A stretch of DNA of 64,000 nt from Candidatus Moraniibacteriota bacterium. GTDB taxonomy: Bacteria > Patescibacteriota > Minisyncoccia > Moranbacterales > UBA1568. The notes beneath the pieces were generated by a model, which saw nothing but the letters and a program-made list of their open reading frames with translations, had not been told where the DNA came from and searched no databases. The translations under genes and the position numbers were made by a program. Where the stretch lies: positions 24,002 through 88,001 of the forward strand of contig SSEF01000020.1 in the NCBI GenBank assembly GCA_008012175.1, read 5' to 3'. Positions 2,084 to 4,651 of the stretch are shown in pieces (positions within the stretch are counted from its first letter, which is position 1; every line of letters begins with the position of its first letter).

Positions 2084-3151
2084 TTACCTTACCAGTATAG
2101 CAGGTTTTACCCCCTCTGTCAAAGTCATTCTCTCTATCTTTTCCCTCAACCGATACCCGTTCCCATGGCTGAGCAATCCGAGATACGCATAAGCGTTCCT
2201 CTCGTCCAACATCCGAAACATCCTCCGCTTCGTTGATCCCCGCAATACGCGATGATCAGGGAAATGCACCCATCCGAGAAAGTCGACGCCCGAAGCAACG
2301 GCTTTGATCAACACCTTATCAGGATGTAAACAAAGTCCGAGTCGTTCCCAAAGAAATTTCCGGATCAATATCAGAAAACCCTCCAGTTGTTCACAGTCTC
2401 TCGACATGATGACAAAATCATCCGCGTAGCGAATGTAATACTTCGCTTTGAGCTTGTGTTTCACGAATTGATCGAATTCGTTCATGTAAATATTCACGAA
2501 AAGCTGCGAGGTCAGATTGCCAAGCGGTAACCCGATACCCGGTCTCTCTAGAGTACGAAAGCTCCGCATCACTCTTTCCAGCAACCAGAGAATATCCTGG
2601 TCAGGGATCCGGTCACGGAGAATACCAAGCAGTATTTCCTGATCGATCGACGCGAAGAACTTCCGGATATCGCACTTCAAGACCCACGCGGTTCTGGTAT
2701 CGTTACAAGAAATTTTCCTCGCAAACACTCGGAATCGATCAAGCGTCTTGTGCGTACCTTTTTCTTTGCGGCAGGAATACGAATCAGCGATGAAGAGCGT
2801 ATCGAAGAACGGATAGAGTATCCGGTAGATCGCGTGGTGGACCAATCGGTCTCTCACCGAAGCCTTGTGGATATCGCGTGGCTTGGGATCGTTTATTTTG
2901 AAGGCTTGATACCCGCCGTGCTCATACGTCTTGTTTTCTAGGTCTTCGTGGAGTGCGAAGATATGGTCCATGAGACGCGCCTCGAATACCTGGACATCTT
3001 GTTTGTTCTTCTTTCCCTTCAGAAATTCCTTCCATGCCTCAAGAAGATTTTCGAGAGATATGATATCATCGTAAACAACCGTTAATTTCTTCTTTGTTTC
3101 GCTATGGCTCTTCCTGGAGTTACCCCCCCCCGACTTGTACCAGTTTTGCAT
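2084..3151 (-). CDS. DGR reverse transcriptase. The full ORF extends to 3469, but the conserved RT domain begins near 3090 and the likely start is Met107 at 3151.
   Basis: RT motifs are present: ...LGNLTSQLFVNIYMNEFD (the DGR-specific [ILV]GxxxSQ variant of the QGxxxSP motif 4) and YADDFVIMS (the motif 5 catalytic YxDD). Upstream, RDRLVHHAIYRILYPFFDTLFIADSYSCRKEKGTHKTL matches the DGR Brt-like N-terminal region. The first 106 codons of the 461-aa ORF are the antisense strand of the avd-like gene and are probably not translated. Confidence 0.9.
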   Translation of the reverse strand: MQNWYKSGGGNSRKSHSETKKKLTVVYDDIISLENLLEAWKEFLKGKKNKQDVQVFEARLMDHIFALHEDLENKTYEHGGYQAFKINDPKPRDIHKASVRDRLVHHAIYRILYPFFDTLFIADSYSCRKEKGTHKTLDRFRVFARKISCNDTRTAWVLKCDIRKFFASIDQEILLGILRDRIPDQDILWLLERVMRSFRTLERPGIGLPLGNLTSQLFVNIYMNEFDQFVKHKLKAKYYIRYADDFVIMSRDCEQLEGFLILIRKFLWERLGLCLHPDKVLIKAVASGVDFLGWVHFPDHRVLRGSTKRRMFRMLDERNAYAYLGLLSHGNGYRLREKIERMTLTEGVKPAILVR

Positions 3152-3487
3152 AAGATAAAAGATGCGTATCTGTTTTGGTATACTCTCCTTTCTTCGCTTC
3201 CCAAGACACACCGCTACTCTCTCGGCCAGCGGATCGATCGTATCTTCATAGAATGCATCGAGTGCGTTTCGGCAGCCGCTTTTCTCTCGCCACAGGAAAA
3301 GATGCCATATGTCCGCCACGCTATCCGCAAAATCGATACGCTCAAGATTCTCCTGCTCGTCCTCTGGGAAACGAAGTCGATCGATACCAAAAAATATATC
3401 GCGCTTTCCGAAAAGATCGATGAGATCGGCAGGATGCTCGGCGGATGGAATGGACAACTCTCCAAACAAAACTCCTCCCGGAAATGA
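3104..3487 (+). CDS. avd: Avd-like accessory variability determinant. It belongs to the four-helix-bundle family, also annotated as the 23S rRNA intervening-sequence protein family.
   Basis: 127 aa. The C-terminal segment ...KKYIALSEKIDEIGRMLGGWNGQLSKQ matches the conserved Avd/four-helix-bundle C-terminal helix; compare bAvd ...AEVGRILGSWIARVNRK and IVS proteins ...ADEIGKMLNGLI. The N-terminal helix YLFWYTLLSSLPKTHRYSLGQRIDRIF matches the family's helix 1-2 region. The gene is on the plus strand, opposite to the RT, TR and target. Confidence 0.7.
   Translation: MALPGVTPPRLVPVLHKIKDAYLFWYTLLSSLPKTHRYSLGQRIDRIFIECIECVSAAAFLSPQEKMPYVRHAIRKIDTLKILLLVLWETKSIDTKKYIALSEKIDEIGRMLGGWNGQLSKQNSSRK
3123..3131. 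repeat. C9/G9 homopolymeric tract inside the antisense overlap between the avd and RT coding regions
   Basis: The sequence read is ta-ccccccccc-g. The tract covers avd codons 7-10 (T-P-P-R) and RT codons 7-10 counted from Met107 (S-G-G-G). Confidence 0.9.
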
Positions 3488-3505
3488 GAGGAGAAATGAA
3501 GAGAG

Positions 3506-3630
3506 TTGCGAAGCGCAGAGCCGGGTTATTGTCGTTCCAGTTGTTGTCGAGCCAGTTCCAGTTCAAGACAATCTGACCACCGTTCTCGATGAGGTACGGG
3601 ACGTTGAGGTTACCATTGCGGTTCTGCACG
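3506..3630 (-). repeat. DGR template repeat (TR)
   Basis: 125 bp are near-identical to 4030-4154. All 10 mismatches have T on the plus strand of this copy, which is A on the minus (sense) strand. The translated sense strand is Asn-rich (NGNLNVPYLIENGGQIVLNWNWLDNNWNDNNPALRFA), with AAC codons typical of a TR. Confidence 0.88.
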
Positions 3631-3929
3631 AATGTATAAGATGCCGTCTATACCACCGCCCATCGAATACTCTCAGGGTTGAATCGTATTCCGCATCTCA
3701 AATGCGCGAGTATCTTATACCAAGTATCTTCATTTTTTGACCCATTCGATAGGCTCAGGGTCATCCTGAGTTTTATCGAAGGATGAAGTGTCTGCATACA
3801 CCACTCTATCCGAAACGGTGGCCACGGATATTCTCAATGTATGGATACTGGATTCGGCCGCCGACGACCGTAATCACCTGCAAGATTCGCCTACTACCAA
3901 TCCCAGTGTATCAAAAAATGAGAAGTTGA

Positions 3930-3971
3930 AGAAATGAAAACCCCGCACTACCATGTAGGTAAAATGCGGGG
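3930..3971 (-). terminator. Putative intrinsic terminator after the DGR target gene
   Basis: Stem CCCCGCA (3941-3947) pairs with TGCGGGG (3965-3971). On the minus strand it is followed by TTTTCATTTCTTC. It lies 25-55 nt 3' of the target stop codon at 3995. Confidence 0.45.
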
Positions 3972-3994
3972 TCAAAGGACTAAGTATCAAGGGT

Positions 3995-4651
3995 CTAAGA
4001 GACCTGAGATACAGAGCCCTGAGGACTACTTGCGAAGCGCAGAGCCGGGTTATTGCCGTGCCAGTTGTTGCCGAGCCAGCCCCAGCTCAAGACAATCTGA
4101 CCACCGTACTCGACGAGGTACGGGACGTTGAGGTCACCATTGCGGTACTGCACGACTGATTTCCAGAGAGAGACTGCCTTGTCTCCGAAATATTTCCGGA
4201 AGATTTCGATGCCTTGCTTCTGGATTTCTTCGCCATCACGAAGCGACAGACAGCGTTCGAGTATCTTCTTTTCCTTGAGATACTCGTAGAGCTTGTGACC
4301 CTCGATACGTTGGCCATTCTTCTGCACGTCATGGAGCCAGAGGTCGACGGCCCCGAGGTCATACTCGACCGGACCGGTGGATTCCAGTTCCGGATGCATC
4401 ACCAGTTTCACCCAATCGGGATAGACGGGACGGATAGAACGATCGACATGAATGAGGGTGTCAAGCGGTGCTTCGGGTGCCAGAGTCGCTCCCTTCACTC
4501 CTTCACGAAGCACTTCAGCGAAACGTGACCGCCAGAGTTCACCATCGGTACTACCAACCTTGTTGACGGTGTCCAACAAGACTCCCAGTCGTTCTTGTGG
4601 GACACCCACGAGGGCACGGACGATGGGGGCGAGCATGTCATTTTTGGACAT
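3995..4651 (-). CDS. DGR variable (target) protein with a C-terminal C-type-lectin-like variable region
   Basis: 218 aa. The C-terminus ...VQYRNGDLNVPYLVEYGGQIVLSWGWLGNNWHGNNPALRFAS is encoded by the VR. It differs from the TR translation only at Asn/AAY-derived positions. The short GGxxxSWxxxxNNxRxAxR-like tail is typical of CLec-fold DGR targets. Confidence 0.85.
   Translation of the reverse strand: MSKNDMLAPIVRALVGVPQERLGVLLDTVNKVGSTDGELWRSRFAEVLREGVKGATLAPEAPLDTLIHVDRSIRPVYPDWVKLVMHPELESTGPVEYDLGAVDLWLHDVQKNGQRIEGHKLYEYLKEKKILERCLSLRDGEEIQKQGIEIFRKYFGDKAVSLWKSVVQYRNGDLNVPYLVEYGGQIVLSWGWLGNNWHGNNPALRFASSPQGSVSQVS
4030..4154 (-). repeat. DGR variable repeat (VR) at the 3' end of the target gene
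   Basis: Aligned 1:1 with the TR at 3506-3630, there are 10 substitutions and all fall at TR adenines. The 3'-proximal 26 nt (4030-4055 and 3506-3531) are identical and GC-rich, which is IMH-like. Confidence 0.88.

Follow-up and report, generated by a model that had tools for sequence, protein, structure and literature searches.

The 64,000-nucleotide (nt) stretch of Candidatus Moraniibacteriota DNA analysed here (contig SSEF01000020.1, positions 24,002 to 88,001; this whole stretch is called the window) contains a compact diversity-generating retroelement (DGR) on the minus strand within its first 5 kb. We consider it probable that the locus is a complete DGR of the Patescibacteria type with the layout TR-(avd)-RT (architecture B3), in which the template repeat (TR) is carried by an independent RNA scaffolded by its own leader and avd is a true protein gene of the plus strand. 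The observations carrying this reading are the identities of the genes, the strand that is under protein selection, the conservation of the layout, the covarying helices, a hairpin with a U-tract after TR, and the unconstrained rest of antisense avd. Read along the minus strand, the target gene with a terminator-like hairpin of its own would be followed by an extended -10 promoter element, then by a TR RNA of about 435 nt and then by the reverse transcriptase (RT) gene. In this arrangement avd would be convergent with the TR RNA and divergent from RT, with the 5' ends of avd and RT overlapping.

The DGR was recognised by adenine-specific differences between TR and the variable repeat (VR), by an RT of the DGR type and by the position of VR at the 3' end of the target open reading frame (ORF), on the same strand as TR. 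A repeat search gave a 129-nt repeat of 91% identity, with TR at 3506-3634 and VR at 4030-4158, inside the target ORF, both on the minus strand. When the minus strand is read, 10 of the 11 internal mismatches between the two copies are A in TR. Because the mismatches are minus-strand A, TR, the target ORF and RT all have minus-strand sense, and the original prediction, which had placed all three on this strand, is borne out. The target gene (3995-4651, minus), defined by its ORF and the repeat, encodes a protein of 218 amino acids (aa) with VR at its C-terminus, and this protein had no match in Pfam or NCBIfam. The RT gene (2084-3151, minus) encodes 355 aa from an ATG at 3151. Its translation matched RVT_1 with 73.9 bits and contains the motifs LGNLTSQ and YADD. 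In RTs of the DGR type, (I/L)GxxxSQ replaces the QGxxxSP of group II enzymes and is accompanied by a YxDD motif. The RT ORF ends at 2084 and a terminator-like hairpin comes next, at 2078-2057.

The plus-strand ORF of 127 aa at 3104-3487 (ATG at 3104), which had been called Avd-like in the original prediction, is a real avd gene and lies antisense to TR, RT and the target. Pfam, NCBIfam, the fold and the substitution pattern agree on this. A hidden Markov model search, which had been named as a check, matched the product to Pfam PF22296 (bAvd) with 46.7 bits (cut-off 40, E 5e-12), over residues 17-116 and model positions 6-104 of 107. The match to NCBIfam NF033474 (DivGenRetAVD) had an E-value of 2.3e-19. 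Its 69.6 bits miss the equivalog cut-off of 80 bits, which counts against the assignment. In total 1832 Avd homologues were found, all with PF22296; their source names are those of four-helix-bundle proteins of Patescibacteria, and the top match is 91% identical. An AlphaFold (AF2) model with 29 homologues as input had a predicted local distance difference test score (pLDDT) of 90.7 and showed four long helices, residues 1-9 being disordered. Foldseek matched the model to 4dwl_C, the Avd of BPP-1, with template modelling (TM) scores of 0.78/0.90 and a root-mean-square deviation of 1.5 A, and also to the Avd chains of 8ub7, a DGR ribonucleoprotein. PDB sequence and profile searches with Avd gave no match, and the fold search alone succeeded. 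The protein is small and basic (isoelectric point 9.76), and its gene adjoins the DGR RT and TR. In the contig index, no record matched the Avd protein of the window exactly. When counted from the ATG at 3104, avd overlaps the start of RT (Met 3151) in antisense over 48 nt, as had been reported. An alternative start, TTG at 3146, would give 113 aa and is the start used by the gene calls in the closest relatives.

To place the locus among relatives, GTDB species genomes were scanned with RT. The scan gave 80 loci, nearly all titled as metagenome-assembled genomes of Patescibacteria, of the candidate phyla radiation (CPR) or of unclassified bacteria, and the layout was counted in the 75 loci with room upstream of RT. 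Every one of the 75 has avd immediately upstream of RT, in the opposite orientation and head-to-head with it; the conventional same-strand avd was seen in none, and the inversion that was to be looked for in related genomes is thus present throughout. TR with adenine-specific mismatches was found in about 58 loci, and its end lies between -9 and +47 nt from the avd stop codon (18 nt in the window). In the NCBI annotation of one relative (L082), RT and avd already overlap head-to-head by 21 nt.

In the account of DGR architectures by Wu et al. (2018, PMC5758913), B3, or 'TR-(avd)-RT', is the one with avd reversed between TR and RT; it belongs to CPR/DPANN DGRs and represents 90% of those of the CPR; the same account states that some DGRs need at least two transcription units. 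The window has the same order and orientation (target, TR, reversed avd, RT) and belongs to the same host group, Patescibacteria. Its gene order is no different from B3, while the avd/RT overlap, the repeat tract, the leader structure and the hairpin over the avd stop codon are not discussed in that account of the architecture. The premise that described DGRs keep avd on the strand of TR and RT was therefore wrong, because an opposite-strand avd between TR and RT is what the B3 description reports, and the relatives agree with it. The inverted avd is an already described, standard layout in Patescibacteria, and the window adds one more member.

On the minus strand, a 461-aa ORF (2084-3469) extends RT across avd and is the exact in-register antisense frame of avd. 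It had been offered as an alternative that this ORF is the true RT with an N-terminal extension and that the likeness to Avd is coincidental. The frame is indeed open in the window; however, in-register antisense frames are typically open by chance, and upstream of the RT homology the RT frame meets a stop within 0-66 codons in 75 of 75 relatives, the closest one included. The relative register of avd and RT is not conserved either, since three registers are represented by 25, 22 and 29 loci (window included). Comparison of the window with L081, its closest relative (avd 87% identical in nucleotides), showed 8, 4 and 31 substitutions at avd codon positions 1, 2 and 3, respectively. Among the changed codons, synonymous and non-synonymous changes stand at 29 to 9 in the avd frame and at 6 to 32 in the antisense frame, so that the substitutions fit the avd frame and not the antisense one. 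In L081 the antisense frame is also interrupted by a stop. Because of the stops in the relatives, this substitution pattern and the L081 stop, the upstream part of the 461-aa ORF (3152-3469, minus) is, as judged from these sequence comparisons, a non-coding shadow frame. Together with the 1832 homologues carrying PF22296 and the fold of 4dwl, these results refute the alternative, and a true 461-aa RT is next to impossible. The RT of the window starts at the ATG at 3151 or has no start.

Directly after TR, the minus strand carries three short elements. The first is S1' (UCUUCAUUU, 3494-3502), the 3' strand of a duplex that brackets the leader and TR. It is followed by an 8-bp hairpin (3472-3493) of terminator-like form with the avd stop codon (3485-3487) in its loop, and by a U-tract (TTTTGTTTGG, 3462-3471) which is antisense of avd codons 120-123 and has the consensus GAGTTTTGTTTT. 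The consensus just 3' of TR reads CGCAAC-UCUCUUCAUUU-hairpin-GAGUUUUGUUUU. Hairpin and U-tract satisfy the definition of a terminator on the TR/RT strand in 51 of 58 loci, beginning about 13 nt past TR, and the stems range from 6 to 13 bp among loci. The arms of the hairpin covary (cognate mean -14.05 kcal/mol, shuffled partners -7.28 kcal/mol, z = -21.7). The position of the avd stop codon floats among loci, from before the hairpin to after it, and therefore the hairpin is a nucleic-acid element and not a by-product of coding. The TR RNA is probably an independent transcript that ends, at least partly, at this hairpin and U-tract.

The extent of the constraint on this strand was measured at synonymous sites. 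In a codon alignment of 74 avd genes, synonymous-codon identity among same-residue pairs was divided by its expectation. The ratio was about 1.0, that is at chance, over codons 17-111. It was raised at codons 120-125 (1.4-2.0) and at codons 7-12 (1.8-2.9), and slightly at Leu112 and Gly113. Constraint at the nucleotide level after TR thus covers about 45 nt only (S1', hairpin and U-tract), overlapping the last approximately 8 avd codons and the stop, and function at the RNA level downstream of TR seems to be limited to this segment.

There is a real possibility, somewhat short of an even chance, that the hairpin after TR is not a terminator and is the counterpart of the Avd-binding stem-loop of BPP-1 (spacer positions 3-33); the U-rich run would then be structural or protein-binding and the RNA would continue. 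Such a hairpin is predicted just 3' of TR in 207 of 278 Avd-containing DGRs, those of CPR included, with stems of about 9 bp (Handa et al., bioRxiv 10.1101/2023.10.23.563531), and the stems of 6-13 bp starting about 13 nt after TR in the present loci resemble it. Against this, the motif, a G+C-rich stem and then UUUUGUUUU, is built like the terminator of the RT gene at 2078-2057, and no sequence constraint is seen past it. This explanation is compatible with an independent, terminated TR RNA if the hairpin does both jobs, and the terminal hairpin may indeed double as an Avd-binding stem-loop.

Upstream of TR, the predicted TR RNA (435 nt, about 3898 to 3464 on the minus strand, from the coordinates of the leader and of the terminal hairpin) begins with a leader of about 260 nt (3636-3898) that forms two domains with 50 pairs in total. 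The proximal domain (3636-3735) consists of S1 (3735-3727), UACUUGGU (3726-3719) and P1 (3718-3709 with 3645-3636), which encloses two hairpins. RNAalifold on 55 loci gave a 10-bp helix around the two hairpins, with 20 pairs, 19 of them having compensatory changes. Of the alignment cells, 94.8% were paired, compared with 70.7% in shuffled and 32-52% in slid controls, and the covariation score was 0.735 against 0.27. The distal domain (3784-3898), which starts with GGTAGTAGGCGAA, has 30 pairs, 25 with compensatory changes, and 94.0% of cells paired compared with 71.4% shuffled and 40-49% slid. Rfam does not hold a family for these structures that could be detected here: the gathering scan of the window gave four tRNAs only, and an E-value scan of 3380-3820 gave only a chance RsaF hit.

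Just ahead of the leader lies a predicted extended -10 element (TGATACACT, 3905-3913, minus) of the form TGnTAnnnT. Where this pattern occurs among the 55 loci, it stands at a fixed 20-21 nt before the conserved GGTAGTAGGYGAA (TAGGYG motif), and one 15-nt bin holds 24 hits compared with 0-3 elsewhere. The -10-like columns are conserved in the leader alignment and lie 3' of the terminator-like hairpin and T-run of the target gene (3941-3969, minus), which is seen at the same position in most loci of that alignment.

A hairpin plus TTTT at 3754-3775 had been proposed as the first terminator on the plus strand after avd. The structure exists; it was found with our own hairpin scanner, and the terminator scan did not list it. 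As a conserved avd-sense terminator it was rejected, being present in 6 of 58 loci compared with 14 of 58 controls. What lies here is a 45-nt insertion, specific to the lineage, in one of the leader loops (minus-strand CTCAGGATGACCCTGAG, 3770-3754). Most relatives lack it, and in four relatives (L012, L019, L010 and L039) the loop holds different insertions.

The leader and the 3' side of TR are connected by pairing. S1' is complementary to S1 (AAAUGAAGA, 3735-3727), which lies about 100 nt upstream of TR, and the two constitute inverted repeat I1. Across 46 loci the cognate S1:S1' pairing had an energy of -6.05 kcal/mol compared with -4.05 kcal/mol for permuted partners (z = -7.9, reached in 0 of 5000 permutations), and the signal persists in the 36 loci without the consensus sequence (z = -7.4). 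A3727 is the last paired base at the 3' end of S1; after it comes UACUUGG, with UUGG invariant in the alignment. In S1:S1', A3727 would lie against the template ...CGCAACUC (3510-3503), where the homology of TR and VR ends. In retrons, the non-coding RNA (ncRNA; msr-msd) is self-contained and structured, lies beside the RT gene and is closed by the inverted repeats a1/a2; through these repeats the nucleotide that primes synthesis, on the 5' strand, lies next to the base of the 3' strand that is copied first. By analogy, S1:S1' probably has a primer:template geometry like that of the BPP-1 duplex between TR and spacer or of retron a1/a2.

The TR RNA would accordingly be made up of the two-domain leader of about 260 nt, TR, the 9-nt S1', which returns to pair with S1, and finally the hairpin with its U-tract; S1:S1' would close a self-contained TR ncRNA. 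Because of the primer:template geometry at the end of the TR/VR homology, it is proposed that the cDNA would be primed from the leader and not from antisense avd. The likeness to the retron ncRNA lies in this geometry; unlike in retrons, what is copied here is a repeat that codes for protein, and the copying mutates adenines. With BPP-1 (PDB 8ub7, 4dwl) the locus shares the Avd fold, the (I/L)GxxxSQ and YxDD motifs of RT, the A-specific differences between TR and VR, a stem-loop right after TR and a duplex between sequences flanking TR. It differs in that avd is inverted between TR and RT, in that about 45 nt after TR are constrained, in the approximately 260 nt of covarying structure upstream of TR, and in the 5' strand of the bracketing duplex, which is about 100 nt upstream of TR instead of within 20 nt. 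The scaffold that follows TR in BPP-1 appears to function here mainly from the upstream side.

BPP-1 has its avd ahead of TR on the TR strand, and TR is separated from brt by an essential spacer of 140 nt (Handa et al. 2018, PMC6182149; bioRxiv 10.1101/2023.10.23.563531). The 140 nt after TR contain an Avd-binding stem-loop, the priming A56, the cPRT-stop strand, the thumb ring and an RT-binding stem-loop (bioRxiv 10.1101/2023.10.23.563531). The original prediction had assigned this role to antisense avd (3152-3505): the whole stretch would be a functional DGR-RNA spacer, with the priming 2'-OH and RT-binding structures, in a single transcript running from TR into RT. The constraint on the first 45 nt or so after TR agrees with part of that proposal. 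The stretch is also physically the sole sequence between TR and RT, the U-tract is imperfect, a separate RT promoter was not found in the window and Leu112 and Gly113 show their slight synonymous excess. Folding of the minus strand, another suggested check, partly agreed as well: the RNA of the window at 3530-3421 is more stably folded than its shuffled versions (z = -4.05) and contains a 10-bp helix that joins the end of TR to GGAGAGUUG within avd. This closing helix, however, has no covariation (z = -0.58) and was rejected as a feature of the family. Codons 17-111 are at chance in the synonymous test, and the sequences provide neither constraint beyond the 45 nt nor a covarying helix for a structured spacer of the BPP-1 type. 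In 51 of 58 loci the hairpin and U-tract come between TR and the rest of avd. The scaffold with strong covariation lies upstream, as does the duplex that brackets TR, and in many relatives the repeat at the avd/RT junction described below is closely followed by a -10-like box and a start codon for RT. A spacer function of the whole antisense stretch is accordingly quite unlikely.

Several points nevertheless weigh against an independent TR RNA that primes from its leader. The strict TGnTAnnnT pattern is present in 25 of the 55 loci only, the start and the end of the TR RNA are predictions, and the priming nucleotide is only a candidate. The U-tract is interrupted by a G, because of which read-through into antisense avd and RT is possible. 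A sigma-70 scan of the window found no convincing separate promoter for RT, and likewise none for avd. Transcription of RT in the window could come from read-through of the imperfect U-tract or from an unrecognised promoter.

Upstream of avd, the perfect palindrome ATGATATCAT at 3060-3069 can be read as an extended -10 (TGnTATCAT) in either direction and precedes the ATG at 3104 by about 35 nt. In the sense direction of avd, 48 of 73 loci have a conserved TGATATnnT, which lies about 100 nt before Tyr22. These sequences could be the avd promoter; promoter and coding constraint are inseparable at this place because TGATATnnT coincides with the conserved RT motif Y-D-D-I-I-S.

The avd/RT junction carries a simple repeat. 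In the window it is a homopolymer of C9 on the plus strand (G9 on the minus strand) at 3123-3131, within the 5' overlap of avd and RT, and it is the sole G/C run of at least 8 in the 64 kb. The next longest G/C homopolymer of the window is a C7 at 28625. A repeat survey covered 75 loci, namely 74 relatives and the window, with 600,744 bases. Of the 75, 55 carry G8-G14 at the junction and a further 10 a different simple repeat (65 together), such as (GA)6-12, (CT)10, (GT)16, (TGGC)6-8, (CTGG)10 or a heptamer repeat. The bases surveyed contain 59 G/C runs of at least 8 in all, and 55 of them are located at the junction.

The length of the tract decides the reading frame of both genes. In the window (C9), RT from the ATG at 3151 and avd from the ATG at 3104 are both in frame through the tract, and the RT frame contains no ATG, GTG or TTG downstream of it. 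L081 has C10 with flanks of equal length, and both ATGs are out of frame; its gene calls start avd at the TTG past the tract and RT far downstream. Contigs with the same Avd protein were compared for tract length. Ten contigs of one such lineage (P0005), from different samples, have no mismatch over 800 nt; the tract is C8 in six of them and C9 in four, one via an A->C substitution and three via insertion. In a second lineage, whose contigs likewise agree over 800 nt outside the tract, C8 was found in four contigs and C9 in one. Two lineages with C6 are invariant in tract length. Contigs of another lineage (P0027) were uninformative, since an exact protein match forces equal length. In loci with a tract of at least 8 (n = 54, window included), an RT start codon lies just downstream in 45. 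TAnnnT follows the tract immediately in 22 of the 54, where about 5% are expected by chance, and in 14 of these 22 the start codon is exactly 7 nt past TAnnnT. This is an arrangement of the leaderless type, which would place the repeat in the spacer of a promoter.

It is likely but unproven that the C9/G9 tract is a slipped-strand ON/OFF switch for RT, and it may switch the long form of Avd too. Known contingency loci include the poly-G tracts in Neisseria ORFs and the TA repeats in the divergent hifA/hifB promoter region of Haemophilus influenzae. The junction resembles them in having a long homopolymer or short tandem repeat at a gene 5' end or promoter, between divergent genes, in the conserved position of a repeat whose length and unit vary, in apparent length polymorphism between contigs that are otherwise identical and in the ON/OFF effect on the frame in silico. 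The junction is a candidate contingency locus, and, unlike in the known ones, the gated function would here itself be a mutator. Full-text searches of the literature found no link of DGRs to homopolymers or phase variation.

The tract could also be passive, being a G-rich ribosome-binding site for RT or the code for a Pro-rich linker of Avd, with length differences that are artefacts and no phase variation; we regard this as possible without being probable. It lies 4-30 nt upstream of the RT start codon in most relatives, where a G-run could serve as a Shine-Dalgarno sequence; homopolymers are error-prone in sequencing, and the 5 of 15 contigs that differ do so by one base. On the other hand, the ten loci with (GA)n, (CT)n, (GT)16, (TGGC)8, (CTGG)10 and the like have repeats that are neither Shine-Dalgarno-like nor explicable as homopolymer artefacts. 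The concentration of long G/C runs at the junction, the invariance of the C6 lineages and the change of both frames between C9 in the window and C10 in L081 also argue against a passive tract. The switch itself is weakened by about 10 of the 75 loci, which lack a junction repeat, by a comparison of long tracts that covers two lineages only, and by the chance that the differences between contigs are homopolymer sequencing or assembly errors.

Taken as a class, DGRs of the B3 type are tentatively proposed to depart from BPP-1 in two ways: the TR RNA would be an independent ncRNA of about 435 nt with a terminator at its end and docking or priming elements upstream, and mutagenesis would be under a phase-variable gate. 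The leader strand S1 would reach the 3' end of TR via the covarying duplex, and the inverted avd would then escape the constraints of the RNA. Through its hypermutable repeat, the avd/RT junction would turn the mutator on or off in a stochastic and reversible way. No description of the leader RNA or of the junction repeat was found in the literature searched, Paul et al. 2017 and the supplement of Wu et al. 2018 being outside that search.

The comparative results provide testable predictions for a class of DGRs that has never been reconstituted. The RNA to express is predicted to run from about 3898 to 3464, rather than from TR through RT. S1:S1', beside UACUUGG, probably sets the site of cDNA initiation, avd is predicted to be freely recodable save at both ends, and the production of any RT may hinge on the repeat tract. 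Should the tract be a switch, hypermutation itself would be phase-variable in tiny-genome, probably host-dependent bacteria, which bears on how the cost of a mutator is limited.

Two minor observations were made at other places. In five contigs that share one Avd protein (L103-L107, P0055), the gene calls give a 205-aa ORF on the avd strand across the expected RT region and include no RT on the opposite one; the explanation is either a decayed RT or a further shadow ORF that was called as a gene. In the window, the minus strand 3' of VR (3970-4029) has a run of short motifs like CTTAG, CTTGA and CTTTG, with stop codons in several frames. A small hairpin, GGTCT-CTT-AGACC, is found about 25 nt past VR and recalls the hairpin associated with the initiation of mutagenic homing (IMH) sequence of BPP-1. 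Hairpins downstream of VR are weakly enriched among the loci (34 of 57, compared with 22 of 57 shuffled).

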